Part shown: positions 20,719-50,249 of the stretch, piece by piece
How the letters are laid out: each line of letters opens with the position of its first letter
Numbering within the stretch: the first letter of the stretch is position 1
Assembly (NCBI GenBank): GCA_040225955.1
Contig: JBECUL010000011.1
Coordinates: forward strand, 1-53,393
DNA: 53,393 bases
Source: Candidatus Asgardarchaeum abyssi
GTDB lineage: Archaea; Asgardarchaeota; Asgardarchaeia; Asgardarchaeales; Asgardarchaeaceae
Direction: 5' to 3'
Position numbers and translations under genes: made by a program
Notes under the pieces: model-generated
The model's input: the letters and a program-made list of their open reading frames with translations, nothing else
Database searches by the model: none
Told to the model about the DNA's origin: nothing

Positions 20719-21312
20719 TCATAATACGATTGGCCCTCTTCTCCGTTTTTCCTCAAATTCTTCTTTCTCTACAGCCTTAAAAGATGGCCCATAGATTATT
20801 GTCATTATTTCTTCAATCAGTCTTACTACTTTTGCTTTTTCTGAAATATCAATCTTTATAAAAGGCACATGATACCCTGTTTTTTGTGAAATTCTATCTG
20901 CGAACTTTTGAGCTTCAACCATACTAACCTCATGTTTTTCAAAGATATCCTCAGCTAACCCTATCCATCCTATTAAGGCAATTGGGGTTTTTTGTTTTGC
21001 GCTAAAAATTTCGTCAATAAACGCACTTAACCCTTCGAAGGTTTCTCGTCTATTCATATTAAATATCAAAAAAATAACATCGGCTTTCTCATAATATTCT
21101 TTCCTAATATTTTCGCGTTTCCTATCAGATGGTAAAATATAAGCATTAACACGGGTAATAAATGGCATTTTCTCAAATCTAACATTAAACGTAACATATG
21201 AAACATCATTTAAACGTAAAGCAGGTTTAGGGGATATTCCTTTAAAAACCTCACTCTTTCCAGACCTAGCTGTACCAACTACAACAACATTTAAAATATT
21301 TTCTTTAGACAT
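20719..21312 (-). CDS. Degenerate Rab/Ras-fold small GTPase (pseudo-GTPase)
   Basis: VVVVGTARSGKS P-loop, YYEKADVIFLIFNM..RETF, PIALIG, VS..EAQKFA; no DxxG, NKxD or SAK. Confidence 0.7.
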   Translation of the reverse strand: MSKENILNVVVVGTARSGKSEVFKGISPKPALRLNDVSYVTFNVRFEKMPFITRVNAYILPSDRKRENIRKEYYEKADVIFLIFNMNRRETFEGLSAFIDEIFSAKQKTPIALIGWIGLAEDIFEKHEVSMVEAQKFADRISQKTGYHVPFIKIDISEKAKVVRLIEEIMTIIYGPSFKAVEKEEFEEKRRRGPIVL

Positions 21313-32782: not shown

Positions 32783-33208
32783 TCAAGACATTCTTTTCAT
32801 TATTCTCTTATATATCCGCTCTTTTTTTCTTCGAATAGTCATTAAGTGCTTTCGTCTTTCTCTATCCAAACTTATTGGTTTTAATTGCCAAAGATAATGT
32901 CTAATAAATTCTCTTGCCTTTTTTAAGCCAGCAAAATATGGATACTTATTTTTAATTTCTTCAATACCGATTCTTCGCCCTTCTATATCCTTTAAAAACG
33001 ATTTAACTATTCTTGTCAAATGGCGTGTGATTTCTAAATACTCATCATACTCCTTACTAGTGAGATTTTGTTTTGATGGAAGTTCGTCGCATAGATTCTT
33101 TAACATTATAACTTTTTTGACTAAGAAAACTTTTTCAGGAATTTCTATGTCTGAATCTTTATCTATCTGTCGAAGTTTTTTCAAAAATAAGGAGTACTCA
33201 TCTTGCAT
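32783..33208 (-). CDS. Hypothetical basic protein
   Basis: 141-aa ORF with a Lys/Arg-rich C-terminus; no motif recognised. Confidence 0.55.
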   Translation of the reverse strand: MQDEYSLFLKKLRQIDKDSDIEIPEKVFLVKKVIMLKNLCDELPSKQNLTSKEYDEYLEITRHLTRIVKSFLKDIEGRRIGIEEIKNKYPYFAGLKKAREFIRHYLWQLKPISLDRERRKHLMTIRRKKERIYKRIMKRMS

Positions 33209-33281: not shown

Positions 33282-36200
33282 TTAAGAGCGTTTTTTCACT
33301 ATTACCACTACAACAATTACTATTACAATGACAACACCTGCAGCTATGCCTATAAGTGTCCAATCAACTCCAGGAGCTGCTGCCTCAACAGTTAATGTTG
33401 CACTCTGGATGCTAAATGTCTCATAATTACTTGCAGAGATTGTAGCATTGAATGTATAAGTCCCTGCTTCATCAGCCTTGACAGTCCAGTTAGCTATTAC
33501 TGACTCACCCGGTTCAATATCACCAAGTATAGCTGTATCGGATTCGTTAACCAAAGTTAGACCTTCTGGAACCTCTATCTTGACTGATACATTCTCTGCC
33601 TTTAATGAACCGTCGTTTGTAACTTTTACACTCACAGTGAACTCAGCACCCTCAGTAACAGTGCCTGGTAATATGAAACTAGCAGTTAGATGAGGTGTTG
33701 GAGCAATTCCTAGTAACCACTCAATCGTGTTTCTTACGAATACTTGATTATTCTCCCACCAAGTAGCATAGTTTCCATCACTTCGAAGTATATAAGTGCT
33801 ACCATATGCAATTACTTTACCGCCATTAGTATTCTCATATGCAGCAACGCCTATAATGGAGCCGTTATCCCATGTAATAATAGTTCCATTATCAAGTCTA
33901 ACAAATGCATCTTCGTCTCCTAATAGGACTGGAATTGCATTGCCACTAAGTTTAAGACCAGTACCATCGTACCATACTTCAGTAACACCAATCTTTAATC
34001 TATTAGCCACATCATTGTCTGCCCATTCATATAGTTTTGGCCAATATGCATTACCATCAATGTTATTTGTTGGGTCTTCTATGTCTGCATCATACCAGTA
34101 GATACCCCAATCTTCAGTTATTTTATTCATGTATTCAGGATAGAAGTAGCTATACCAGTTTCCAGCAAGTAATAGTTTACCACCATTATTAACAAAATCT
34201 TTCAATGCTACGGCTTCAGTATCTGTTACAGCATCTTCAGGGTTCGGTAATATATAAATCTCAGCAGCCGCTAATAGATCACTTGTAATAGGCTCTTTGT
34301 TGATAATGACATTTCCATATTCTTCTAGTAAATCGATGAAATCAGATAACTTATCTGGATCAAAGTATTGACCATGCGCATAATCAACAATTATTGCTTT
34401 CTGTACTAGAACTTTCACAGTAATCGTATCTTCAACAGAACCTCCGTCCTCTGAGGTAATATTCACTGTAAATGTGTAATCTCCAGCTGCAGAAACTGTG
34501 AATTTCCATTTAACAATTGCATATTGAGATGGACTCAAATCGCCAACATCAGCTGTTAGGTTATCAGTAGTAGAGATATTTTCTGCAGGAGGTGTTACTT
34601 TAGCTACTATGTTATGTACTGATAAGTCAGCTATATTAGTGATATTAGCAGTTATGTTAAATTCATTGGATACAGTAAGAAGCACAACCGATGGTTCTGC
34701 ATGCAATTCAAGCGTTAGATCAGGAATTATCTCAACTTCAATAGTCTTTGTAATATTACCGCCTAGCGTGCTATTAACTTTAACTATAATTGAATATGTT
34801 CCTGGCACACTACTGTTAAATATTAAAACATATTCTCTTGAATCTCCTGGTGCAAGGTCACCGATAGTATATTCCGTCAGGTTGTATGTATTTATCTCTG
34901 CAGGGAAGGTTACTGTTAGGTTAACATTTGTTGCATTTACACCGCCAAAGTTGCTGACAACCACTGTTAAAGTTCCATTGTTTCTCATAGGCAATTCTTC
35001 AGGAGCTGAAACATCCATATATAGAACCGCAGACTTTCTTATCAGTTCTCCTTCAAGCCAACCCATTACATTCTCAATGAATTCTTTATTTGTTGCAAAG
35101 TAGTCATAGCTATCCCAAAATACGCTACTAGATCCTATGGCGAATATTCTTCCACCATCTTCAAGGTCAACAGCGGCAGCAGCAATAACATCAGAACCAT
35201 TAGCAATTATAGTATCAGCCTGCATAGCATAGGTGTTGTTTGGAACCGGATCCTCGTCTCCAAGGAGTATCTTCACTGCACCCTTTGCCTCATCGACGTC
35301 AAGAGCACCACCTTCATATTGAACAACAGATACATTCTCTGAAAGTAGATCCGCTAAAGTATTATTTGCAAATACTCTTAAGTATGGGTATCTTGATTTA
35401 CCAGTATTATTGTTTTCGTCATATATTGTTGACTTCAAGAATGTTATTCCGTACCCTGCGGTTATTTCATTGTAATCACTATTATTGCTCCAGTAGTACT
35501 CCCTGTTGGCTGCAAACAATACAGCACCGCTCTTATTCTCTATGAAGTCCTTTATGGCACCAATCTCATCTTGTGTCAGGTGAGTATTTATTGAGAATAT
35601 TATTAGAACGTCTGCAGCAGCTAGGAGTGATTTTGATATTGGATTCTTGCTAATAATGACATTCTCTTTATGAGCTTTTAACATATCTATAAATTGAGAG
35701 CATATGCTACTCGTGAAGTATTGATCATGGCTCTCATCAAAGACTATAGTTACAAACTCTTCGAAAAGCCAGTCAACAACATTTCTAGCAAATTTTTCAT
35801 TATCATACATATGGATATAGTCTCTATACCATTTTGCAGTATCATTTGCGAAGACCTTAGAAGAGCCAGACGCAAAGATACGCCCACCATCTAGAAGGTC
35901 TACAGCTGCAAACGGTATTACGTTGCTTGCATTTGCAAGAATCGTACCTGCTTCATCAACAGCATATGTGTTATTTGGAACGGGATCACTGTCACCAAGA
36001 CCAACAGCAAAAGCTTTACCAGTTACATTAAGTGTACCGCCATTAAATACAACTTCAGACACACCCTCTGTCATAAATACGGCATCTGGGGTTTCGTTAT
36101 TGAATACATGAATTATTGGCTCATAAGCATTGACATATCTATGATCATCTTCGTCCATTATTTCAGAATCATAGAAGATTATTCCGAACTCACCAGTTAT

Positions 36201-36653
36201 CTTTGTAAGGTTTACTGAATAGTAATTATACCAGTCACCCATTATAAGCAATGAGCCTCCATTTCTAATGAAGTCTTTTATGGCGTCGATTTCCTCATCA
36301 TAAAAATCTTTGCTTGGATTAGGAATTATAAGAACGGATGCATTTTCAAGATCATCTATTGTTATATTGTCGGTGTTTATAACAACATCCGCTCGCTCAC
36401 TTACAATTTGTAGAAAGTCATAAAGTCGCATATGATCATAGTACTGATTATGCCCTTCGTCAAACACAACAATTGGCCTTTGAGACTCGCCTAGAGAGTC
36501 AACTTCTTTTGATACAATATGTTCGTGAAATGTTATTTCAGGTTGTGTTGTTGTAATGCTTGCAGTCATTGGCATTTTGTACATTGCAACTAATGGGGAT
36601 AGCAAACTTAATAGTAAAATGACAATCAAAATGGAGCTTATATATTTTTTCAT
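33282..36653 (-). CDS. Large cell-surface glycoprotein with three GIFT/DUF4350-like domains and CARDB/NEW3-like Ig domains
   Basis: Signal peptide MKKYISS..; three repeats starting VFDEGHNQYY / VFDESHDQYF / IVDYAHGQYF, each with ..IKDFI..GG.LL..; Ig-like N.G...A.NV..LGDI.PG.S segments; many N-x-S/T sequons; C-terminal TM + KKRS. Confidence 0.8.
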   Translation of the reverse strand: MKKYISSILIVILLLSLLSPLVAMYKMPMTASITTTQPEITFHEHIVSKEVDSLGESQRPIVVFDEGHNQYYDHMRLYDFLQIVSERADVVINTDNITIDDLENASVLIIPNPSKDFYDEEIDAIKDFIRNGGSLLIMGDWYNYYSVNLTKITGEFGIIFYDSEIMDEDDHRYVNAYEPIIHVFNNETPDAVFMTEGVSEVVFNGGTLNVTGKAFAVGLGDSDPVPNNTYAVDEAGTILANASNVIPFAAVDLLDGGRIFASGSSKVFANDTAKWYRDYIHMYDNEKFARNVVDWLFEEFVTIVFDESHDQYFTSSICSQFIDMLKAHKENVIISKNPISKSLLAAADVLIIFSINTHLTQDEIGAIKDFIENKSGAVLFAANREYYWSNNSDYNEITAGYGITFLKSTIYDENNNTGKSRYPYLRVFANNTLADLLSENVSVVQYEGGALDVDEAKGAVKILLGDEDPVPNNTYAMQADTIIANGSDVIAAAAVDLEDGGRIFAIGSSSVFWDSYDYFATNKEFIENVMGWLEGELIRKSAVLYMDVSAPEELPMRNNGTLTVVVSNFGGVNATNVNLTVTFPAEINTYNLTEYTIGDLAPGDSREYVLIFNSSVPGTYSIIVKVNSTLGGNITKTIEVEIIPDLTLELHAEPSVVLLTVSNEFNITANITNIADLSVHNIVAKVTPPAENISTTDNLTADVGDLSPSQYAIVKWKFTVSAAGDYTFTVNITSEDGGSVEDTITVKVLVQKAIIVDYAHGQYFDPDKLSDFIDLLEEYGNVIINKEPITSDLLAAAEIYILPNPEDAVTDTEAVALKDFVNNGGKLLLAGNWYSYFYPEYMNKITEDWGIYWYDADIEDPTNNIDGNAYWPKLYEWADNDVANRLKIGVTEVWYDGTGLKLSGNAIPVLLGDEDAFVRLDNGTIITWDNGSIIGVAAYENTNGGKVIAYGSTYILRSDGNYATWWENNQVFVRNTIEWLLGIAPTPHLTASFILPGTVTEGAEFTVSVKVTNDGSLKAENVSVKIEVPEGLTLVNESDTAILGDIEPGESVIANWTVKADEAGTYTFNATISASNYETFSIQSATLTVEAAAPGVDWTLIGIAAGVVIVIVIVVVVIVKKRS

Positions 36654-36907
36654 TTTCGTTACCCCACGGGTTATTATTAAAACCACGTTTTAGAATTACA
36701 TAATTAGTAGGAGATATTTAATATTTTTTATCGCGATAGAGAACAAATATAATATTGAGAAGCCTAAAATTTTATTATTATTCAGTTATAGTTAGTAATT
36801 TTTCAGATTTCAGATTATAGTAGCTACCTTATTTTGATAATCTATAGGTTTATATGTATATATTATAGAACATAGTTAGAGGTACTTTAAAAATACGGTG
36901 CTAAAAG

Positions 36908-37936
36908 ATGATTGGACATGTTAAAGTTATCAATCTTCAAAAAATATACCGAGTCCCAGAAAAAAGAAGTTTCTTAAAGAGGACATACAAAACAATAAGA
37001 GCTATTGATAATGTAAGCTTTGAAGTTAATCCTGGAGAAATTTTTGGCTTATTAGGCCCAAATGGAGCAGGGAAAACCACACTTATTAAAGTTCTAACAA
37101 CATTGTTAATACCAGATAATGGAGATGCTTATGTTAATGGATATAATGTTTTGAAAGAGCCGTATAAAGTTCGGGCAACAATAGGAGTTATGTTGATGGG
37201 AGAGCGAAGTCTATACTGGAAATTAACTGGGAGAGAAAATCTTGAATACTTTGCGGCGCTTTATCATATTCCAAAAAATGAAATTAAGAGAAGAGTTAAT
37301 GAAATAATAGATTTTGTAGGCATTCAAGACTTTGCGGATAGACTTGTTGAAACTTACAGTAGTGGGCAAAAGATGCTTCTTGCTTTTGCAAAAGCGCTCA
37401 TAAATGACGCTCCCATCCTTTTTTTAGACGAGCCAACAATTGCAATGGATCCAAATAGAGCTATGGAAGTTAGAGAGCTTATAAGAAAACTAAACGAGAA
37501 ATATAAGAAGACGATATTTCTTACAACACATTTGATGAATGAGGCCGATACGTTATGTCATAGAGTTGCGATTATAGACAAGGGAAGAATTGTTGCAATG
37601 GATACTCCCCAAAATTTGAGAGTGAATATTCCTCATAAAGGAGCTATTGAAATTGAAATACAAGGAAGAAATATACAAAATATTATTAACGAAATAAGGG
37701 ATATCAATGGTATAGAAAAGATTGCATACTCCGCTATGAATACTGATCAAACTGTTTCTGTGAGAATACTTTGTGATAGCCCAAGAAACGTTTTACCTGA
37801 TGTAATGAATGTTCTTATCTCACATAAGGAGATTTCTATAAGGTATATAAACCCAACTGAACCCACCTTGGAGGACGTCTTTATATATTATACTGGACGA
37901 CGTCTTTCTGAAGATACAAGGGAGGAAGCATTGTGA
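36908..37936 (+). CDS. ABC-2 type exporter ATP-binding protein (DrrA-like)
   Basis: GPNGAGKTT, YSSGQK, FLDEPT, TTH, EPTLEDVF. Confidence 0.92.
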   Translation: MIGHVKVINLQKIYRVPEKRSFLKRTYKTIRAIDNVSFEVNPGEIFGLLGPNGAGKTTLIKVLTTLLIPDNGDAYVNGYNVLKEPYKVRATIGVMLMGERSLYWKLTGRENLEYFAALYHIPKNEIKRRVNEIIDFVGIQDFADRLVETYSSGQKMLLAFAKALINDAPILFLDEPTIAMDPNRAMEVRELIRKLNEKYKKTIFLTTHLMNEADTLCHRVAIIDKGRIVAMDTPQNLRVNIPHKGAIEIEIQGRNIQNIINEIRDINGIEKIAYSAMNTDQTVSVRILCDSPRNVLPDVMNVLISHKEISIRYINPTEPTLEDVFIYYTGRRLSEDTREEAL

Positions 37937-38793
37937 CTTGGAAAGAAAAAAACAAAATTGAGCCCATAATCACATTAATAATATACGTCTTTAAGATCCG
38001 ATGGAAGCACATGATTAGATATAAAGGCTGGTTTGTAATATCACTCTTCATTCCAGTAATATTCGCGGCATTTCCAATTCTCATAGGGACAGCAATGGCA
38101 GGTAGTCCAGCAAACGCTGCAATGAATTTTCAAAGGAATGTAGGAACCAGTAATTATGCACTTTATATGTTAATAGGGACGGCTATTTGGACTTTGGCAA
38201 TTGGAATTATGTGGGACTTTGGTACTTGGCTCAGAGATGAACAGCAGCAGGGCACACTAGAACAAATATTCTTAGCTCCAACTAGTATATTCTGGATTGC
38301 TGTTGGTTCATCGTTATTTGGCGTATTTCAATCATTATTGCAATTTGTAATTGTTATAATTGTAGGAGGTATTATATACCAAGTGATATTTGATATAATA
38401 ACCCCAGCTTTTTTAATAGCGATAATATATATTATTTTGGGAATTATTCCATTAATTGGAATATCACTGGTGTTAGGGAGCATAGTTGTGAAATACAAAG
38501 AAGCCACCTCTCTTTTTAATCTTCTTCAGCCAATTTTTGGATTTTTAATGGGCATTTTTTATCCAATAACTGTTCTTCCGATGATAGTAAGGTATTTATC
38601 ATATACGTTACCACTAACATATTCAACTAATGATGCTAGAGCTGTTTTATTGCATTTAAATTATATTTTTAATTTTTGGGTGGATCTTATCATACTATTA
38701 TTGTTTGTCGTAATATGGCCTCTACTGGGACTATGGGAATTTTCAATTATTGAAAAAGAAGCAAAGAAGAAAGGTACTTTAGGAGCGTACTAA
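37933..38793 (+). CDS. ABC-2 type transporter permease
   Basis: EQQQGTLEQIFLAP, GIFYPITVLP, LPLTY; about 6 TM helices. Confidence 0.88.
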   Translation: MTWKEKNKIEPIITLIIYVFKIRWKHMIRYKGWFVISLFIPVIFAAFPILIGTAMAGSPANAAMNFQRNVGTSNYALYMLIGTAIWTLAIGIMWDFGTWLRDEQQQGTLEQIFLAPTSIFWIAVGSSLFGVFQSLLQFVIVIIVGGIIYQVIFDIITPAFLIAIIYIILGIIPLIGISLVLGSIVVKYKEATSLFNLLQPIFGFLMGIFYPITVLPMIVRYLSYTLPLTYSTNDARAVLLHLNYIFNFWVDLIILLLFVVIWPLLGLWEFSIIEKEAKKKGTLGAY

Positions 38794-38795
38794 TA

Positions 38796-39650
38796 ATGAA
38801 TACGGAATTAAAAAATGAAATATCTGCATTAATTACAATGACTAAAACTTTACTAAAGATATCAATGAGATATCCTTTAGACTTTACTGCTGGTTTCATT
38901 AGCCTGTTATTTTGGATACTTATGTTTTTCACAGCAGCTCTTGTTTTTGCTAGTCCTGAAAACTCAGCAACGAGTAGTTTCTATATAAATTCTATTACTT
39001 GGGGGATGATAATTTTCTTCTTTATCAATGATTTGGTATGGACCATGGGTGTCGGTATTAGATATGCCCAGATTACAGGTATTTTAGAACAAACATTTTT
39101 GACACCAAATAAAGAACATATATATCCTCTCTCAAGAGCCTTACGTTCTTTATTACTGACAATACCATTTAGTATTTGGGCATTACTTTTAATGGAGCTA
39201 TTAACGGGTGCTGTAAGGATAGTGAATCCGCTATTAGGAATTTATATACTCATTATATCGGCTATTATGTTTATGGGTTTTGGGTTTCTTTATGCTGGAT
39301 TAATAATTAATATAAAAAAGGCTCATACAATAACAGGGTTCTTCCAATTCATAATAATGATCTTTTGTGCAGTATTCTTTCCATTTAAAGCTCTTCCAGA
39401 ACAGTTATTAATAATTTCAAAACTCATTCCATTTTCTTATAGTGTTGACTTATTTAGGACTGTTATTAGTGGATATCAGCCAGAATTGTTTCCCGAGAAA
39501 ATAACTATTGGAATGTATTCAATTACATCATTTCAATTAGAGTTTTTAATAATACACATTTTTACTGTAGTCTTTCTGATCACGGGGTTTAAGTACTATA
39601 AGTATACAATAGAAAAAGCGAAACGAGAAGGCTCTCTTGGTCTATACTAA
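38796..39650 (+). CDS. ABC-2 type transporter permease
   Basis: GILEQTFLTP, VFFPFKALP, IPFSYSVDLFR; about 6 TM helices; paralog of the upstream gene. Confidence 0.88.
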   Translation: MNTELKNEISALITMTKTLLKISMRYPLDFTAGFISLLFWILMFFTAALVFASPENSATSSFYINSITWGMIIFFFINDLVWTMGVGIRYAQITGILEQTFLTPNKEHIYPLSRALRSLLLTIPFSIWALLLMELLTGAVRIVNPLLGIYILIISAIMFMGFGFLYAGLIINIKKAHTITGFFQFIIMIFCAVFFPFKALPEQLLIISKLIPFSYSVDLFRTVISGYQPELFPEKITIGMYSITSFQLEFLIIHIFTVVFLITGFKYYKYTIEKAKREGSLGLY

Positions 39651-39668: not shown

Positions 39669-40298
39669 TTATAACATATCAATGTAAGAAGATACCTTAC
39701 GAATTATTGTTTCTGGCCGGTTGACTCTTTTTAACTCATTTAGAAGCTTAAGGATTAATTCATTAGGCAAGGTTTTGTCATGTCGAGAAAAAAATACAAG
39801 AATGTTATTTTTATGATCATTGATAAAAGTAAATCTAAGAGGAATATTATCAATCAATAAAGTAGCTTCCATATGCTCAATACTTAAAGAGAGTATAACT
39901 CTTTCAATAATGTCCATTAAGAATGATAATATTAGCTCATTCGGACGTAAAGATGCGATGACGAGTATGTTTTTCTTTTTATTAAAAACAGCAATTCCTT
40001 TGTTTGTGTCTTTAGAGATTTTATCATGATTAATTACATATTTGATGACTTTAAAATGATGTGATACAAATAGCTTATCTACTTGAGTTATTTTTGGTTG
40101 CCCTTCTTCAAAATGAATATAAACGACCAAATCATGATTATTTGAACATTTTGCTAATATTGGCACAGGAGCTTTCATCTTATTATAATAAGTTTTAATT
40201 TTTGGCAGATTTACAAATAAATTTATTATTGGTGTTCCACAAATCGGACACGAAAATGCTGGAAGCTTGTTACTATCGCTTTTACTCATATATATCAC
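39669..40298 (-). CDS. Hypothetical protein with N-terminal Zn-binding motif
   Basis: FSCPICG..CSNNHDLVVYI (CxxC..CxxxH). Confidence 0.55.
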   Translation of the reverse strand: MIYMSKSDSNKLPAFSCPICGTPIINLFVNLPKIKTYYNKMKAPVPILAKCSNNHDLVVYIHFEEGQPKITQVDKLFVSHHFKVIKYVINHDKISKDTNKGIAVFNKKKNILVIASLRPNELILSFLMDIIERVILSLSIEHMEATLLIDNIPLRFTFINDHKNNILVFFSRHDKTLPNELILKLLNELKRVNRPETIIRKVSSYIDML

Positions 40299-41071
40299 TT
40301 GAGAAATTGATATTGTTTTTTCTTTTCCAAATATTTAATAAAAGCAGCGGCATCATCACCCATGTATATATTATTAAATAGGAAGTATACTTCTTCTATG
40401 TTAAACTCTTGCTCGAAAGTCTTTAATTTTTCTATAAGGAAATCAAAGTCTTTTACTGTATACTTATAGTTATACATCCTATTTCCAGGTGGCATTCCAT
40501 GAAGCCTAAAGTACATAATTTTATTTTCAACATGAAGTGGATCGTTTGCAAATGGATCAACTATATGAATTATTTTCAACCTTTCACAGATATCTTTAAT
40601 TATATCATCCTTCCAATCCTTTCCACGGGGTTCCCATCCTAGAATTAAACCATCACGATCAATTTGCGAGAAAAAAGTCTTCATGTTTGAGATATTATCA
40701 TCAGTCGGTTTGAAAGACGAGGGGGTTTGAAATACACAAATTTTTGACCCTAAAATCTTGCATGCTTCTTTAGTTATATTCCAAGCATCAATAACAACTT
40801 TATGATTTCTAAAATATCCTGCATTGCGCAAATCTTCATCGCTGAGAGAAATCTTTGCTTTTCTATAAGTTGGTGATGTGGATGGGTGTGTTATAATCTG
40901 CCATGCCTTAACGGAAAACTCGAAATCCTCTGGTGCTGACTCCCTCCATCTTCTTAGTGTTGTTGGCTTAGGAGGTTTATAGAATGTTTGCTGCACCTCG
41001 ACTAATTTATATTTATTAAAATATTTTGACATACCACCCGGAAAGCCACAACATCCAACTTTTATTATCAT
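40295..41071 (-). CDS. DUF72 family protein
   Basis: KVGCCGF, VEVQQTFYKPP, FSVKAW, FQTPSSF, GWEPRG, YFRLHG, FLFNN. Confidence 0.9.
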   Translation of the reverse strand: MIIKVGCCGFPGGMSKYFNKYKLVEVQQTFYKPPKPTTLRRWRESAPEDFEFSVKAWQIITHPSTSPTYRKAKISLSDEDLRNAGYFRNHKVVIDAWNITKEACKILGSKICVFQTPSSFKPTDDNISNMKTFFSQIDRDGLILGWEPRGKDWKDDIIKDICERLKIIHIVDPFANDPLHVENKIMYFRLHGMPPGNRMYNYKYTVKDFDFLIEKLKTFEQEFNIEEVYFLFNNIYMGDDAAAFIKYLEKKKQYQFLK

Positions 41072-41086
41072 TACAATCCCCTATAG

Positions 41087-41866
41087 TTATTTCTTACTAG
41101 CAGTTAAATATAAGAATATCTCACAATTTAGATTCCCTTTTCTTAGATAAATTCCAATTTTCAAGTCTATATTATTAAGCTTCTTAATTATTTTATTTGT
41201 AAGTTGAATTATTTCAGAAATGGATATCGTACTAGGAACTATAAATAGTAGGATGCCTCTTAATAAAGAGTATTTATTTAAAAATGCACAATTAATTTTT
41301 TCAATATTATTTATAACAAGCTTACTTGCTCTATAAACATCCAAACTTTGTTTCCTTGAGATATATTTCGAGAAAAAACCAATATTGGTGTTTTTATGTA
41401 ATGAGATAAAGTCAGCTAAAGTGACATCCATAAAACCAAAAGTATGTAGTGCAAAAACTATAGTATTTAAGAAAGAAAAAATAATGTTTGTAGCCTTTGT
41501 TATATTTCCATTTGTTCTAAAACAATAAAATGTAATATCCGAATAAGATTCAAGAAATTTATCATTTAATGGTTGTCCAGTGTTAGAAGTAATGAGAGCT
41601 ACAACATTACCATTTATGACTAACTTACTGCTTCTGAAAAAATGTTGAAGCAGCTCATTCTCATGTTCACTAAGAAGAATTATTGATAATACATTTTTTG
41701 AGAACACCTTTTGTAGGGATTTATCATTCTTGAGTCTAAAAATATCATCATATGAGAAAAAATAAATCTTACTTATTCTTCTTTTTAACTTATAAGATAG
41801 TAACTCCGAACTACTATCAAACGGCAGTACAATTATATTTGTATTACTGCTCATGATAGCCACCAT
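41087..41866 (-). CDS. Highly divergent FtsZ/tubulin-fold protein lacking GTP-binding glycine motifs
   Basis: KATNIIFSFLNTIVFALHTFGFMDVTLADF aligns with FtsZ H7/T7 (..GLINLDFADV). GILLF..ISISEIIQLTNKI..LKIGIYL..EIFLYLT aligns with the FtsZ C-terminal domain. No GGGTG(S/T)G. Confidence 0.55.
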   Translation of the reverse strand: MVAIMSSNTNIIVLPFDSSSELLSYKLKRRISKIYFFSYDDIFRLKNDKSLQKVFSKNVLSIILLSEHENELLQHFFRSSKLVINGNVVALITSNTGQPLNDKFLESYSDITFYCFRTNGNITKATNIIFSFLNTIVFALHTFGFMDVTLADFISLHKNTNIGFFSKYISRKQSLDVYRASKLVINNIEKINCAFLNKYSLLRGILLFIVPSTISISEIIQLTNKIIKKLNNIDLKIGIYLRKGNLNCEIFLYLTASKK

Positions 41867-41903: not shown

Positions 41904-42683
41904 TTGGTGATATACATGTATTTTAATTCTCTCAATTGGAAAATATTCAAGTTTGAAAAAGTAACATCGACAATGGATGTTGCAAAAGATATTGCGGAAA
42001 AAATAGATCATCCAATTTTTGTTGTAACCGCACAAGCCCAAAGTCGTGGTAAAGGAAGAAAAGGGCGCTTTTGGTATTCACCAGAAGGAGGTCTTTGGGT
42101 AACTATTGTTTTACGGGGGGTTATTCCCAATACTAAAATTTTTATGATCCCCTATTTAGTAGCGGTTGCTACGGCAGAAACTATAAATTACTATTCGTGC
42201 GGTAAGAGAGTATCAATTAAATGGCCAAACGACATTCTGATCGAAGGAAAAAAGGTTGCTGGGATTCTTATAGACTCAAGGGAGTCATGTAGATGTGATT
42301 TTCAGGATGTGTTTATTGGTATTGGTATTAATATTAATAACCCAGTAGGAAATAGAAAGGATTTAAGAGATACAGCAATTTCACTTTCAGAAGTATGTAA
42401 AAAAGAATATAATATATCTGAAATTCTTGATTTTCTTCTCAAAAAGATTAATATATTACTAATTGAATTCATACGAAAAAGAAGTAAACCAGATAAACTC
42501 TTTGACCTATGGAAAAAATTTGATATTACTTTAGGAAGAAAAATTAGTGTTGATATGGAAGGTAAAAAAATTATAGGTCGTGCAGTAGATATTGATTATA
42601 ATGATGGTGGTCTCATTTTTGATATCGATGGTAACGTTATAAAAATTTATGATTATGTTTCAATTAGAATTTTAGAAGAATAA
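41904..42683 (+). CDS. birA: Biotin-[acetyl-CoA carboxylase] ligase (no HTH)
   Basis: [39 protein letters not shown]. Confidence 0.93.
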
Positions 42684-42700
42684 AGCTGGTGTTACGATAT

Positions 42701-44275
42701 ATGAGTTACGAGGAAGATAGCTTTCCAACATACGAAGAACTTGTAGAAGAATTAAGAAAAAAGAAAAAAAGGGCTGAACTAGGCGGTGGTCCAGAAAAGA
42801 TTAAGATTCAGCATAAAAAAGGAAAACTGACTGCTCGAGAGAGAATAGAGCTCTTATTAGATGAGGGAAGTTTTGTTGAGCTTGATAAGTTGGTTGAAAC
42901 AAGAGTACGCTACTTTGGTCTAGAGGAAAAGAAAATCCCCGGAGATGGTGTGGTCACCGGCTATGGTACTATTGATGGTCGCTTAGTTTTCATATATTCT
43001 CAGGATTTTACCGTTATGGGTGGATCACTTGGAGAAATGATGGCAAAGAAAATAGTAAAGATTATGGATTTAGCACTTGAAGTCGGAGCACCAGTTATAG
43101 GAATAAATGACTCTGGTGGAGCAAGAATCCAAGAGGGTATCTTAAGCTTGGGAGGGTATGGAGAAATATTTTACAGAAATGTTATCGCCTCTGGCGTAAT
43201 TCCTCAGATTTCTTTGATAATGGGACCTTGCGCTGGAGGAGCTGTCTATTCTCCCGCATTAACAGATTTCATAATAATGGTTAAGAAGACAAGTTATATG
43301 TTTGTAACTGGACCGAAAGTTACGAAGGCTGCTATAGGCGAGGATGTAACTTTTGAGGAACTCGGTGGGGCTTTAGTACATGCAGAGAAAAGTGGAGTCG
43401 CTAGTTTAGTTGCTGAAAATGACGAAGAGGCTTTAGCAATGACACGTCGTCTTTTAAGTTACATACCACAAAATAACATGGAGGACCCACCAGTAGTTAA
43501 AACTCTGGATGATCCTAATAGAATGGACGAGGAATTAGATCATATTGTTCCAACAGATCCTAAGTTAAGTTATGATATGAGAGATATTATTTTGAGAATT
43601 GTAGATGATGGCGAATTTTTCGAAATTCAACCACTCTTTGCTAGGAACATAATAACTGGATTTGCTAGGCTTAACGGACACACGGTTGGAATAATAGCAA
43701 ATCAACCTAAAGTTCTAGCTGGCGCTCTTGATATAGATGCCTCTGACAAGGCTACAAGATTTGTTAGATTTTGTGATGCCTTTAATATACCAATTGTAAC
43801 ATTTGTTGATGTACCAGGATATCTTCCAGGAACCGCGCAGGAGCATGGAGGCATAATAAGGCATGGAGCTAAATTAATTTATGCTTATGCAGGAGCCACC
43901 ATTCCAAAATTAACTGTTATTGTCAGAAAAGCATACGGTGGCGCTTATATAGTTATGAACAGTAAACATTTAGGCGCAGATATAGTATATGCTTGGCCAA
44001 CTGCAGAGATAGCTGTGATGGGAGCTGAGGGAGCTGTTGAGATAATATTTAAGAGAGAATTAGAAAAGGCGGAGGACAAAGAAGCCTTTATGAGAGAAAA
44101 AATAAAAGAATACAGAGATCTTTTTGCAAATCCATATCGAGCTGCAGAGGTTGGATATGTTGATGATGTCATAGAGCCTCATGAAACTAGACCACTATTA
44201 ATAAAAGCTCTTGAAATGTTAATTAATAAAAGGAAGTCACTCCCCCCAAGAAAGCACGGGAATATGCCAATGTAG
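42701..44275 (+). CDS. Acyl-CoA carboxylase/decarboxylase carboxyltransferase subunit (PccB/MmdA-like)
   Basis: [59 protein letters not shown]. Confidence 0.94.
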
Positions 44276-44287
44276 GGGGTTTATCAT

Positions 44288-44848
44288 TTGCTTGAAAAAA
44301 CAAGATACGAATTGATTATTGATAATAATGCATATAAAGTTAAGGTGAAAAGATTATCAAAAGATAAGTTATTAATTGATTTTGGGGAAAGAAAAATAAT
44401 AGCTAAGATAAAGAGAATTGATAGTTTTGGTCATGCAATAATCAAAATTGGCGATAAGGAATATAATATAGTTCTTAATAATTTTGTTTCCGAAAGGAAC
44501 GAAACACCAAAAATCGAAGTTAATGCAAAGCCTCTTAAACTGTCAATCAGAGAGCACTTAGACATGCAAATACCACCAGAATCTGCAATGTCACCATACA
44601 TTGAGTATAAGAAGGATAAAAGTAAATTTATCCCCCTAGGAACCGTTGTTGCTCCATTTTATGGAAAACTAGTTGAGTTAAAGGTCAAAATCGGAGATAA
44701 AGTTAAAAGAGGACAAACAGTAGCTGTCATAGAAGCCATGAAAATGAGAAATGAAATTGTAGCAAAAGTGGATGGTATTGTTAGAGATATTAGGGCATCG
44801 ATAGGTAAGATTGTCAAAAAGGGAGAGCCTATAGTTACTATTAAGTAA
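44288..44848 (+). CDS. Biotin carboxyl carrier protein
   Basis: IEAMKMRNEI biotinylation motif. Confidence 0.9.
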   Translation: MLEKTRYELIIDNNAYKVKVKRLSKDKLLIDFGERKIIAKIKRIDSFGHAIIKIGDKEYNIVLNNFVSERNETPKIEVNAKPLKLSIREHLDMQIPPESAMSPYIEYKKDKSKFIPLGTVVAPFYGKLVELKVKIGDKVKRGQTVAVIEAMKMRNEIVAKVDGIVRDIRASIGKIVKKGEPIVTIK

Positions 44849-46412
44849 CATTCGTTGAGCGATAGAAGAAATTTTTCCTTTTTCCCCATCTACTTAAGTA
44901 GAAGATTTCGTATTGATTTTGCGGATATATATACCGTCTGACCTTCTTAGCTACTTGAACTGTACTGTTTGCTGTTAATTTTGAAAGATTTTTTCCTATC
45001 AAAACATTAATAGCTGCTGTTACGGCAGCAACTCTTTTTAGTTCCTCATCATATACTTCATTAAGTAAACCTCGTAAATAGTTATCTAAATATAATGTAT
45101 TATAATTACCCTTAATGAAATTCTTTTCTGAGAATATAATCTTATATAATGGTATGGTTGTTTTGATTCCTGTAATAACAAATTCGTCGAGAGCTCTTCT
45201 CATTCTATTTATTGCGGACAATCTATCAATATCCCATACCATTAACTTCGCAATTAATGGGTCATACTCAGGTGGAACTGATGCTCCTGAGCGAACTCCA
45301 GAATCCACCCGTATTCCAAAGCCTCCTGGTTCAAAGTATTCCTCAATCGTACCAGGGTTTGGCAAGAAATTATTGAATGGGTCTTCTGCATTTATTCTAC
45401 ATTCAATTGCCCACCCTCTTAAAGTTATATCACTTTGCGTGTAGCCTATTTTTTCGCCAGCTGCAATTCTGATTTGCTCTTTAATTAGATCAATACCTGT
45501 TCTTAATTCTGTGATTCCATGCTCTACTTGTATTCTAGCATTAATTTCTAAGAAATAGAACTCCCCATCTTGATATATAAACTCTATAGTACCAACGCTA
45601 TCATAATTTATTGCTTTTGCTGCTTTAACGGCATACCCTCCCATTATTGTACGTTCTTCTTCAGAAAGCGCTGGCGATGGTGATTCTTCAATTAATTTCT
45701 GATGCCTTCTTTGAATGGAACATTCTCTCTCTCCTAAGTGAACCACGTTACCATATTTGTCTGCAATAATTTGAAATTCTATATGCCTTGGACGGGTCAA
45801 GTATCTCTCTATATATATGCTGTCATCTCCAAATACATTAAACGCTTGTTTTTGAGCTTGTTTAAACATTTTCTTTAACTGCGATGGTGACCGTGCTACA
45901 TACATTCCAATGCCGCCGCCACCAGCTGCTGGTTTGAGAAGAACTGGATATCCTATTTCATTAGCCACCGCTAAAGCATCATCTAAGTCTTCTATTGGAG
46001 ATAGAGACCCCGGGACTACTGGAATATCAGCTTTTCTCATAAGTAGTTTAGCATATAATTTGTCTTTTATTTTCTTAAGGACCTCTGCTGAAGGGCCGAT
46101 GAAAGTTATTTTATTCTTTTCGCAAGCCTCTGCAAATCGATAATTTTCGGATAAGAATCCATATCCAGGATGGATGGCATCCACTCCAGCTTCATCTGCA
46201 ATATTAATTATCTTTTCAATATTTAAATAACTATCAAGTGGATCAGATTTACCAATGTAAAATGCCTCATCAGCCATTTTTACGTGTAAGGAGTACTTAT
46301 CAGCATCCGAGTATATGGCAACCGACTTTATTCCTAGTTCTCTACATGCCCTAATTATTCTAACTGCGATTTCGCCTCTATTAGCTACTAGTATTTTCTC
46401 AAAATATGTCAT
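44841..46412 (-). CDS. accC: Biotin carboxylase subunit
   Basis: KILVANRGEIAVR, HPGYGFLSEN, GGGGIGM, ERECSIQRRHQK, RIQVEH, ECRINAED; convergent with BCCP. Confidence 0.94.
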   Translation of the reverse strand: MTYFEKILVANRGEIAVRIIRACRELGIKSVAIYSDADKYSLHVKMADEAFYIGKSDPLDSYLNIEKIINIADEAGVDAIHPGYGFLSENYRFAEACEKNKITFIGPSAEVLKKIKDKLYAKLLMRKADIPVVPGSLSPIEDLDDALAVANEIGYPVLLKPAAGGGGIGMYVARSPSQLKKMFKQAQKQAFNVFGDDSIYIERYLTRPRHIEFQIIADKYGNVVHLGERECSIQRRHQKLIEESPSPALSEEERTIMGGYAVKAAKAINYDSVGTIEFIYQDGEFYFLEINARIQVEHGITELRTGIDLIKEQIRIAAGEKIGYTQSDITLRGWAIECRINAEDPFNNFLPNPGTIEEYFEPGGFGIRVDSGVRSGASVPPEYDPLIAKLMVWDIDRLSAINRMRRALDEFVITGIKTTIPLYKIIFSEKNFIKGNYNTLYLDNYLRGLLNEVYDEELKRVAAVTAAINVLIGKNLSKLTANSTVQVAKKVRRYIYPQNQYEIFYLSRWGKRKNFFYRSTNVT

Positions 46413-46505
46413 AACAGAAACACCTAATATCAAGACTTATGCACTGCTGAAAACGATGAAAACTTGAGTCAATAGGAGCTATATCAATAGATGTTGGCAA
46501 CTTCA

Positions 46506-46766: not shown

Positions 46767-47708
46767 TCACTTATGTAATTTCATCCATTCAACAACTTCT
46801 TTTATACCTTTATATAATTTTACATTAGGATGGTAACCCAGAAGTTTTTTCGCTTTGTTGATATTTGCAACACTACGCTCAATATCACCAGGGCGCATAC
46901 TTTCATATATTGGCTTTAAATTAGGTTTATTTGCCGCTTTAATAATAATATTTGCTAGTTCAGATATTGATACTTCAGAGCCGCTAGCTATATTGAAAGG
47001 TTCTCCATGAACATTCTCTTTAATAGCAAGCATAGTTGCAAATACTACATCTTTTACATTAACAAAGTCCCTTGTCTGATGCCCACCGAACACAATTGGT
47101 GGCTTATCGTTTAAAACTCTGGAGACGAATATTGTGATGACTCCAGCATACGGATCGTCAGGATTTTGCCCTGGTCCATAAACATTAAAGGGTCTCAATA
47201 CAACAACTTTTAGACCATATAGATGATCATATGTCAGAGAATAATACTCGCTTGAAAGTTTACTTACTCCATATGGACTTATCGGATTTTTAGGGTGTTC
47301 TTCATCTATAGGAATATACTTTGGGTTACCATATATAGCAGCGCTAGAGAAATGTATGAACTTTGCCACATTATACTTTAGGGAGAGAGCTAAAATGTTT
47401 AGTGTTCCGATTATGTTATTTAATGCATCATAACATGGATCCTCTATAGATTTGTTAACACTAACCTGAGCTGCAGTATGAATAACTATGATTTCATCTT
47501 TCCTTGGGAATATTTCTTCTAATTTATCTTTGTCCCTTAAATCTATTTTCTTGAATTCAACATTTTCTTGAATGTCTCTTATACGATTTATATCGCCTCT
47601 AGATAAATTGTCTATTATTAGAACTTCGAAGTCATCTTCAACTAGTTTATGTGCTATATGAGATCCTATAAACCCGCAACCTCCAGTTAAAAGTACTTTC
47701 ATTATCAA
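46767..47708 (-). CDS. NAD-dependent epimerase/dehydratase (UDP-glucose 4-epimerase-like)
   Basis: TGGCGFIGSH, SSAAIYG, YGVSK, RPFNVYGP, RDFVNV. Confidence 0.92.
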   Translation of the reverse strand: MIMKVLLTGGCGFIGSHIAHKLVEDDFEVLIIDNLSRGDINRIRDIQENVEFKKIDLRDKDKLEEIFPRKDEIIVIHTAAQVSVNKSIEDPCYDALNNIIGTLNILALSLKYNVAKFIHFSSAAIYGNPKYIPIDEEHPKNPISPYGVSKLSSEYYSLTYDHLYGLKVVVLRPFNVYGPGQNPDDPYAGVITIFVSRVLNDKPPIVFGGHQTRDFVNVKDVVFATMLAIKENVHGEPFNIASGSEVSISELANIIIKAANKPNLKPIYESMRPGDIERSVANINKAKKLLGYHPNVKLYKGIKEVVEWMKLHK

Positions 47709-48346
47709 TCGCTCTCCTTTGGATATGTTTCGCGTTTTAGTATGTCAATAGGACCTTCCTTCCAATTAAAAATATTAAGATACCTATTAGAGAAGAAGAT
47801 AAAAATCCTTTTTTTCATGAATAATATTATGGCACCAGCAATTAGCGATGCAATAAAAGGCATTTGGGATATTAAAAAGTCAATAAATGTAAACACGCCT
47901 CCAGTAGAGAATGTCTCTCTTAAATAGAATATTAAAGTTATATGAGATGATAAGATTTCTGATAATACTGTAACTAACAGAATATTAGAACTTAGTCTTG
48001 TAAAGTAATCCTCTTGTATGAGATTTAAAGTATGAGTCCCATTGATAAGACCTATCAACCCATCTACTAGAGAAGTAGGATATATGGCAAATGGTAGGAA
48101 TAAAATTATCAGCACCATAGTAGCTAGTAGCGATAGAAGATATATCATCTGAGATAGTATATACTCCAGGTTTCTAAATATGACAATTGACCAAAACATA
48201 AGATAAAAGTTCACAAACATAGAAATAAAGACAACTGCAAGAAGTAGTTTTAACTTTCTTAGAAGACGTATATTTTGAGCTTTAACTTGAAGTAGAGTAT
48301 TAATTACCGCTTCCTTCGATTTCTCAAATGACACTAGTCCACTCAC
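47705..48346 (-). CDS. Hypothetical membrane protein (about 4 TM helices)
   Basis: GTG start after AGGTGA; hydrophobic segments; stop overlaps the epimerase start. Confidence 0.6.
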   Translation of the reverse strand: MSGLVSFEKSKEAVINTLLQVKAQNIRLLRKLKLLLAVVFISMFVNFYLMFWSIVIFRNLEYILSQMIYLLSLLATMVLIILFLPFAIYPTSLVDGLIGLINGTHTLNLIQEDYFTRLSSNILLVTVLSEILSSHITLIFYLRETFSTGGVFTFIDFLISQMPFIASLIAGAIILFMKKRIFIFFSNRYLNIFNWKEGPIDILKRETYPKESD

Positions 48347-49667: not shown

Positions 49668-50249
49668 TTAGGGCATTATAAGTTGTTTAGCGAGAACTTC
49701 AAAAAGTCTTTCAACATTTTGGCCAGTTTTAGAGGAAACTATAATATATTTGAAGTTTTTTTCCTGAGCAAAAGTCTTTATTTCGTCATAATTAATAGCT
49801 CTTTCTCTAATTAAATCCGCTTTATTTCCAACTAAGACAAAATTGCGAGCTACATCAGGTCTCTTACCAAAATCAACTTTTAGTTCTTTCTCAACAGCCG
49901 GAACCCAAAATTTTTTTAGATCATCAAAAGAGATAGGTTCAGTTAGGTCAAAAACAAAAAGACCGCCAGAAGCCCCTTTAAATAGCCTTAGCATTAACTG
50001 CCGAAATTGCTCTTGCCCAGCAAAATCCCAAAGTTGCAAAACAACCTCGAATAAACCATTTTCTAATTCCACATTAACTCTCTTCACAAAAAAAGCAGCT
50101 CCTATTGTAGACTTAAGAGTAGTAGGGTCGGGGAACTCACCAGTGACGGTTCTATAAATTAAGCTGGTTTTTCCAACACCAGTGTCACCCATTACTAATA
50201 TCTTAAAAATTTTCTTAGTATACTTCTGCGACATTTCGATATTACTCAC
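49668..50249 (-). CDS. Rab-like small GTPase
   Basis: G1 GDTGVGKTS, G2 STIGAAF, G3 WDFAGQE, G4 GNKAD, G5 SSKTG; no C-terminal Cys. Confidence 0.92.
   Translation of the reverse strand: MSNIEMSQKYTKKIFKILVMGDTGVGKTSLIYRTVTGEFPDPTTLKSTIGAAFFVKRVNVELENGLFEVVLQLWDFAGQEQFRQLMLRLFKGASGGLFVFDLTEPISFDDLKKFWVPAVEKELKVDFGKRPDVARNFVLVGNKADLIRERAINYDEIKTFAQEKNFKYIIVSSKTGQNVERLFEVLAKQLIMP

Follow-up and report, generated by a model that had tools for sequence, protein, structure and literature searches.

A putative GTP-blind, FtsZ-like protein in an Asgard archaeon

Can a protein without the glycine loops with which FtsZ binds guanosine triphosphate (GTP) still belong to the FtsZ/tubulin superfamily and, if so, what might it do? 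The question is raised by an open reading frame (ORF) at positions 41087-41866, on the reverse strand, of a 53,393-nucleotide stretch of DNA from Candidatus Asgardarchaeum abyssi (contig JBECUL010000011.1 of assembly GCA_040225955.1; the whole stretch is called the window below). A first-pass annotation had interpreted its product, here named P0001, as a pseudo-FtsZ that has lost its GTP-binding loops and kept a T7-like loop. Our best reading, held tentatively and at slightly less than even confidence, is that P0001 is a real, lineage-restricted protein with the two-domain FtsZ/tubulin architecture, blind to GTP and tail-less, which might dock on its relatives from one side only. Residues of P0001 are numbered from the ATG at 41866 (259 codons), so that residue 5 is the Met of the ATG at 41854.

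GTP-binding motifs and predicted fold

The GTP motifs are absent from P0001. Its sequence holds neither the GGGTG[ST]G motif (T4) nor a T1-like glycine run, only 8 of its 255 residues (3.1%) are glycines, and no two of these stand side by side. The claim of the first-pass annotation that the GTP-binding glycine loops had been erased is thereby borne out.

Support for an FtsZ-like fold comes mainly from structure prediction. The ESM Atlas contains an entry for exactly this protein, with a predicted template modeling score (pTM) of 0.79 and a predicted local distance difference test score (pLDDT) of 0.73. The Atlas models nearest to it are FtsZ clusters, with template modeling (TM) scores of 0.79-0.81 and 247-249 residues aligned over residues 5-259. 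When neighbors are ranked by language-model features, 26 of 30 are short "putative FtsZ" clusters of ~240 amino acids (aa) with no Pfam family in common (score 0.92); P0001 has 201 of 256 features in common with them, and its Atlas neighbors bear PF12327. For the N-terminal domain of the model (residues 5-142), the highest TM score, 0.73, is to an FtsZ-like cluster of 294-aa proteins, 94% of which carry FtsZ_C and 18% Tubulin, as compared with 0.55-0.65 to flavodoxin, SIS and CheY folds. On the basis of these models, P0001 probably adopts the two-domain FtsZ/tubulin fold, and the sole confident model is FtsZ-like, as the first-pass annotation had anticipated.

Our own AlphaFold2 models are of low confidence (pLDDT 37.6 from the single sequence and 41.8 from four sequences) because no usable alignment is available, and such poor models are not evidence against an FtsZ fold. 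The order of their secondary-structure elements, i.e., helix-strand alternation, a 21-residue helix, a loop, helix, (strand), helix, strand, helix, strand, strand, fits an FtsZ from which S3 and H6 have been deleted. A pseudo-FtsZ without a GTP pocket, the central proposal of the first-pass annotation, is thus favored by the Atlas structure and features, by a weak signal from H7, T7 and the C-terminal domain (see below) and by the order of secondary-structure elements, but the AlphaFold2 models are too poor to confirm it.

At the level of sequence, hhalign and HMMER converge on residues 125-231, a stretch of 107 residues that both programs place colinear with H7, T7, H8, S7, H9, S8 and H10 of FtsZ. 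This likeness, which the first-pass annotation had pointed out, is recovered by the two aligners independently and at weak significance (p ~0.01). A hidden Markov model (HMM) of our own, built from H7 plus the C-terminal domain, gives P0001 a score of 4.1 bits, which lies below any family threshold and is reached by 9-14 of 1000 shuffled sequences, and in a test with an HMM of the whole core, P0001 is equaled by 8-22 of 1000 shuffles. Mismatched controls in the domain-restricted HMM tests gave p values of 0.06-0.7.

The N-terminal part presents a different picture. Here, the segments of FtsZ with which the first-pass annotation had matched P0001 one by one are at chance level, and both HMMER and BLAST choose another register, in which residues 10-91 lie opposite S5-H7 of FtsZ. 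In BLASTP, residues 10-91 (window positions 41590-41839) are 31% identical over 83 residues to S5-H7 of the host FtsZ2, with LPF and NDK motifs included (E 0.012 in this single comparison). A register that sets the N-terminus at S5-S6 of FtsZ on the strength of that E value was rejected, as it would place ~95 residues with three strands in a stretch that FtsZ fills with H6-H7 alone and would not permit the Atlas match, in which 247-249 residues are aligned. The S5-H7 similarity may be due to chance or may be the trace of an internal rearrangement.

A constrained and lineage-restricted gene

The ORF list contains one long frame at these coordinates, of 259 codons, and it is the sole long frame at its position. 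The DNA around it has a GC content of 29.5%. Since stop codons are frequent in such DNA, a frame of this length is very unlikely to have arisen by chance. Translation most likely begins at the second in-frame ATG, at 41854, giving a product of 255 aa; all four homologues begin with MSSNTN, i.e., at this ATG, and a Shine-Dalgarno-like motif stands upstream of it (Table 1). Motifs of this type precede 26 of the 49 ORF starts in the window. If translation began farther upstream, at the in-frame ATG at 41866, the product would be four residues longer. The C-terminus lies three residues past the last predicted strand, leaving no linker and no tail, and Pfam identifies no extra domain, MORN included, such that the FtsZ-like core makes up the entire protein.

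P0001 is a lineage-restricted orphan. Searches of Pfam, NCBIfam, PADLOC, PHROGs and the PDB sequences returned no match, while 5.8 billion proteins, searched through a word index, and 1.84 billion representatives, searched in full with HMMER (phmmer), each yielded the same single cluster. This cluster has four members with 92.5-96% identity, all of them intact and with no insertion or deletion within the frame. A copy with 96% identity has been deposited as a protein from a metagenome-assembled genome of Candidatus Odinarchaeota, in agreement with the Asgard-like origin that the first-pass annotation had suggested for this DNA. A profile made from the four sequences gave only chance-level matches in 400 Asgard genomes, a set in which the relatives of the host are no closer than phylum level; none of the matches inspected was tubulin-like, and a weak one, in genome G037, sits among unrelated genes. 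Two contig collections (genome and metagenome) gave no match. Hence, P0001 is restricted to one narrow, genus-level and Odin-like group.

Within this group, the gene is genuine and evolves under constraint. The copy on a 36,990-base-pair contig is 92.5% identical to P0001 (19 differences), while the corresponding identities for its neighbors are 97.3% (DUF72), 96.5% (BirA), 98.7% (carboxyltransferase), 91.5% (ABC-2 permease) and 96.5% (the ATPase of the ATP-binding cassette, ABC, type). P0001 is therefore evolving two to three times faster than the neighboring enzymes, at about the pace of a membrane protein. The substitutions are unevenly spread, with 16 of the 19 falling within residues 63-126 (binomial p ~1e-7), whereas residues 5-62 are invariant and the 133 C-terminal residues, 127-259, nearly so. 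Four intact copies with clustered substitutions amount to the pattern of a functional protein and not to decay; neutral decay of the orthologs, which the first-pass annotation had raised as an objection to its own reading, is not what these copies display. It follows that a decaying or spurious ORF devoid of function, although it would suit the orphan-like distribution and the rapid evolution of the gene, is very improbable in view of the improbable length of the frame at this GC content, the Shine-Dalgarno motif, the absence of insertions and deletions in the four copies, the uneven substitutions and the almost invariant C-terminal part.

Possible mode of action and competing explanations

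According to the layout proposed here, P0001 would begin with an α/β domain, continue through a long helix equivalent to H7 and a T7-like loop, and close with a domain of the FtsZ_C type, with about 60 core residues deleted and every GTP-binding loop lost. Because of the loss of these loops, P0001 should be unable to bind or hydrolyze GTP or to build canonical head-to-tail polymers. The next subunit would find no nucleotide face on it, and the linker and tail through which FtsZ reaches SepF would be missing. With some confidence, then, P0001 can be described as having no GTP binding of the FtsZ type, no nucleotide face and no tail for SepF.

In FtsZ, H7, T7 and the C-terminal domain form the face that is inserted into the nucleotide pocket of the neighboring subunit. 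Besides residues 5-62, the invariant parts of P0001 are just these: H7, the T7-like loop and the C-terminal domain. With its T7/C-domain face, P0001 might bind FtsZ1, FtsZ2 or a tubulin-like paralogue where these leave their nucleotide face exposed, and its decayed upper face would give the next subunit nothing to bind. The outcome would be that GTP-bound monomers are sequestered, or that P0001 caps the filament end at which the N-terminal face is exposed, the (-) end. One-sided docking on FtsZ-family proteins is inferred, and we regard it as possible but doubtful. The fuller proposal, a copy of FtsZ turned into a nucleotide-free, tail-less and one-sided capper or sequesterer, i.e., a regulator that stems from FtsZ and acts on the archaeal cytoskeleton, is a little more doubtful still. 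The first-pass annotation had suggested a filament capper or a scaffold; either function is purely inferred.

There are precedents for regulation through a single interface. The FtsZ-like domain of plant ARC3 is not known to have GTPase activity. The closest precedent in the literature for the proposed action is ARC3, as this domain is FtsZ-derived, does not polymerize and regulates true FtsZ by inhibiting its assembly [PMC12232670]. However, ARC3 joins this domain to a middle domain and MORN repeats in a large eukaryotic chimera, whereas P0001 consists of 255 aa with nothing added, shows no detectable sequence relation to ARC3 and has a putative interaction with FtsZ. FtsZ filaments expose the C-terminal face at their growing (+) end, and regulators acting on one interface cap or sequester; for MciZ, MipZ and SulA, capping or sequestering by way of one blocked FtsZ interface is established [PMC9897490]. 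These proteins occupy one longitudinal interface of FtsZ, as is proposed for P0001, but their folds are unrelated to FtsZ and they bind its C-terminal (T7/H10) face, at the (+) end. P0001 would itself present a T7/C-domain face and consequently bind the opposite, nucleotide face.

Comparison with the members of the superfamily places P0001 at some distance from all of them. With canonical archaeal FtsZ1 and FtsZ2 (PF00091 plus PF12327), which are reported from Odinarchaeota [PMC12583498], it shares the predicted two-domain fold, the H7-like helix, the T7-like xxADx motif and an FtsZ_C-like order of elements. Unlike them, it has no Pfam match, no T1 and T4 glycine loops, ~60 fewer core residues and a Thr for the first catalytic Asp of T7. 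It also lacks their N-terminal amphipathic helix, C-terminal linker and SepF-binding tail, has a basic isoelectric point and occurs in one narrow lineage. FtsZl1/Tubulin_2 (PF13809), CetZ and OdinTubulin are likewise divergent members of the archaeal tubulin superfamily, yet they keep a recognizable GTPase domain and match PF00091 or PF13809, neither of which matches P0001. The third tubulin-family paralogue of the host (440 aa), in contrast to P0001, also matches tubulin-family models. The nearest counterparts, in feature score (0.92) as well as in structure (TM 0.73-0.81), are unnamed bacterial short FtsZ-like clusters in the Atlas (~240-294 aa, with FtsZ_C in part of the members), which have the size class of P0001, a lost GTP pocket and a retained C-terminal domain. 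These clusters are sizeable and come from Bacillota, Bacteroidota and Fusobacteriota; they have no sequence-level link to P0001, to which their likeness is predicted by the Atlas comparison. No paper describing them was found in the literature searched.

Several results weigh against an FtsZ-like reading of P0001. The Pfam model of the FtsZ C-terminal domain, PF12327 (FtsZ_C), does not match the protein with hmmscan at E<=1 or retrieve its locus at E<=10 in a search of the genome; PF00091 (Tubulin, at E<=1 and up to E<=10) and PF13809 (Tubulin_2) do not match either. When the whole of P0001 is aligned with 28 Asgard FtsZs by hhalign in local mode, its score equals the mean of shuffled sequences, 94 of 200 shuffles doing as well or better. 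The colinearity with FtsZ that was claimed in the first-pass annotation for the whole protein is therefore upheld by the full-length Atlas match (TM 0.79-0.81) but not by whole-protein profile alignment or by Pfam. An HMM of the FtsZ N-terminal domain scores residues 5-121 no higher than 22-78 of 1000 shuffles (p 0.02-0.08), which is not significant, and the N-terminal domain cannot be assigned by sequence. The T7-like loop, said to be kept, is kept in part: its GFMDVTLADF stands opposite GLVNLDFADV of the host FtsZ, in a register taken from weak alignments, and of the N-x-D-x-x-D residues of T7, the last Asp appears to be retained, the Asn replaced by Asp and the first catalytic Asp by Thr. 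As read from this register, the catalytic residues are preserved only partially, and the NxDxxD/E pattern of the synergy loop is not found.

To these points are added the results of structure comparison and of gene context. Support for the predicted fold comes mainly from one source, the language-model-based ESM Atlas, and neither Foldseek nor VIA gave a meaningful match to the AlphaFold2 models (pLDDT ~38 and ~42). P0001 is basic (isoelectric point 9.7) and rather hydrophobic; FtsZ proteins are not known to be basic and hydrophobic in this manner. Given its narrow lineage, P0001 cannot be a general regulator, and annotation of the neighborhood in the window identified no division genes. Gene context speaks for small-GTPase systems no less than for FtsZ. 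Moreover, by our own reasoning, an FtsZ without S3 and a Ras protein without β2 have an identical order of strands, such that the N-terminal domain alone cannot decide between the two. An FtsZ fold is preferred over a Ras-like one because of the part comprising H7, T7 and the C-terminal domain.

The Ras-like alternative deserves a closer look. Here, the N-terminal domain of P0001 would be a decayed Ras/Rab-like pseudo-GTPase to which a C-terminal α/β domain was added, and the likeness to FtsZ would reflect convergence of the 2-1-3-4-5 sheet. The suggestion arises from gene order. A search by synteny for a diverged orthologue of P0001 beside DUF72 in the relatives of the host gave none, and a Rab-like GTPase was found in that place instead. 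Both in the nearest relatives with an orthologue of DUF72 (57-59% identity) and in one additional family, a Rab-like GTPase of ~180 aa lies directly upstream of DUF72 as a conserved, co-directional and adjoining pair (G038 L050 962-2238, G028 L051 1501-2804, G033 L058 738-2274), and in the window, P0001 fills the slot of this GTPase. In phmmer, residues 64-136 align with α3-α5 of the DUF72-linked GTPase, with NKxD opposite GNVVAL, at a score reached by 3 of 500 shuffles (p ~0.006). The genome holds ~27 small-GTPase matches, and paralogues of the Zn-ribbon protein of the gene cluster head Roadblock/Ras operons (see below). However, a broader small-GTPase HMM gives p 0.08-0.13 against P0001, hhalign is at chance, PF00071 has no match in the protein, and a genome-wide search with the DUF72-linked GTPase does not retrieve the locus at E<=10. 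The G motifs, i.e., the P-loop GxxxxGK[ST], DxxG and NKxD, are absent from P0001, and no Ras-like family occurs among the Atlas structural neighbors of residues 5-142. The order of C-terminal elements suits FtsZ_C and not the Roadblock domain. On balance, we consider a decayed small GTPase quite unlikely.

Almost as unlikely is a lineage-specific α/β protein akin to neither FtsZ nor Ras, of which the Atlas model would be over-confident. It would agree with the lack of homologues below 92% identity among billions of proteins, with the failure of AlphaFold2 to fold P0001, with whole-protein profile comparisons at chance and with the Atlas's own figures, according to which a first feature hit of >=0.9 is obtained for 4-10% of shuffled proteins. 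On the other hand, it is unlikely to be an accident that a pTM of 0.79 goes together with TM ~0.8, across the entire protein, to several independent FtsZ clusters; 201 of 256 features are in common with FtsZ clusters, and two aligners independently chose an identical register of H7, T7 and the C-terminal domain (p ~0.01). If the fold is that of FtsZ, it may also have been repurposed, with P0001 serving as a static adaptor or scaffold away from FtsZ-family filaments, perhaps together with the DUF72 and Zn-ribbon proteins. The tight three-gene cluster, the absence of division genes nearby, the basic isoelectric point and the partly kept catalytic residues of T7 argue for this role; the invariance of H7, the T7-like loop and the C-terminal domain, which form the longitudinal interface of FtsZ (residues 5-62 aside), and the lack of a known partner argue against it. 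A scaffold working with operon partners and one-sided docking are about equally likely, and we extend the same reserve to both.

A GTP-blind third FtsZ member has not been described for Odinarchaeota in the literature searched, which reports two FtsZs and a tubulin. The superfamily has been surveyed with PF00091 as the query [PMC9871819]; since PF00091 does not match P0001, surveys of this design would miss it. If both the FtsZ-like fold and one-sided binding hold true, the archaeal lineage that stands nearest to the eukaryotes would possess a natural capper or sequesterer made out of FtsZ itself, a parallel to plant ARC3 and to the eukaryotic use of non-polymerizing members of the tubulin family. 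Such a protein would regulate the archaeal cytoskeleton as a derivative of FtsZ, and the literature searched describes no regulator of this kind. The weight of these implications is limited by the occurrence of P0001 in one genus-level group, by a context other than division and by the single structure prediction that supports the fold.

Gene neighborhood and host genome

The gene for P0001 is the first of a cluster of three, and its parts and partners are collected in Table 1.

Table 1. Coordinates of the P0001 gene, of the predicted parts of its product and of the clustered genes (positions in the window)
Feature	Position	Strand	Remarks
P0001 coding sequence	41087..41854	-	255 aa; start ATG 41854, stop 41087-41089; putative GTP-blind FtsZ-like protein
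Shine-Dalgarno-like GGTGG	41860..41864	-	5 nucleotides upstream of ATG 41854; read from the sequence
N-terminal α/β domain, residues 5-121	41504..41854	-	strand/helix alternation (AlphaFold2 secondary structure), no glycine-rich loop; probably a decayed GTPase domain
Fast-evolving segment, residues 63-126	41489..41680	-	S4 to S6 of the FtsZ register, on the side of the former nucleotide pocket
Long central helix, residues 122-142	41441..41503	-	FtsZ H7 equivalent; helix in both AlphaFold2 runs; aligned to H7 by hhalign and HMMER
T7-like loop GFMDVTLADF, residues 143-153	41408..41440	-	opposite FtsZ psLInlDfaDv; invariant in the four copies
C-terminal domain, residues 154-259	41090..41407	-	FtsZ_C-like order helix-strand-helix-strand-helix-strand-strand; nearly invariant among homologues
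DUF72 (YecE-like) gene	40295..41071	-	15 nucleotides past the P0001 stop; Pfam PF01904, E 1.7e-36; probably co-transcribed
Gene for 206-aa protein, N-terminal Zn-ribbon	39669..40289	-	third in the cluster, after DUF72 with a possible 4-nucleotide overlap

The 206-aa protein has no match in Pfam, NCBIfam or PDB, and BLAST gives no link between its C-terminal half and Roadblock. Its Zn-ribbon has three paralogues in the genome, each encoded by the first gene of an operon with a Roadblock-like protein (G000:C75:4410-7054, L088; G000:C50:7324-10177, L089 2325-5178; G000:C36:6493-8278, L090 2494-4279). These operons open with a Zn-ribbon protein of 86-119 aa and a protein of 131-135 aa, one of the latter matching Roadblock/LC7 weakly. 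Two of the three continue with an unassigned, apparent membrane protein and a Ras-family GTPase, and the third with a protein of the metallo-β-lactamase fold. P0001 has no similarity to the 263-aa and 505-aa proteins of the Zn-ribbon operons.

The host genome encodes FtsZ1 (G000:C33), FtsZ2 (G000:C150) and a third tubulin-family protein (G000:C13), all away from P0001. The third gene specifies 440 aa, with 67 bits to PF00091 and a weak match to Tubulin_2. It is preceded by an ORF of 469 aa without a Pfam match, which overlaps its start, and the two (L003 75-2799) may form a two-gene, tubulin-like module; P0001 is not similar to the 469-aa product.

Upstream of P0001, and divergent from it, lie birA and genes for a biotin-dependent carboxylase, with an ABC-2 transporter on the other side. 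The carboxylase set is complete (41904-46433), comprising a BirA-like ligase (41916-42683), the carboxyltransferase (42701-44275), the biotin carrier (44288-44848) and, in convergent orientation, the biotin carboxylase (44841-46433). ORFs at 47705-48346 (213 aa) and 32783-33208 (141 aa) have no Pfam match. In the region 33282-39650, a protein of 1134 aa combines domains similar to IFT52-GIFT, ABC_transp_aux and OST48_N with a C-terminal CARDB/NPCBM-associated domain, and its gene adjoins those of an ABC ATPase and two ABC-2 permeases. Two further small-GTPase-like genes are found at 20893-21126 and 49680-50210, one well conserved (E 3e-28 with a Rab-like query) and one very weak (E 0.003); the latter corresponds to the "Rab-fold pseudo-GTPase" of the first-pass annotation.

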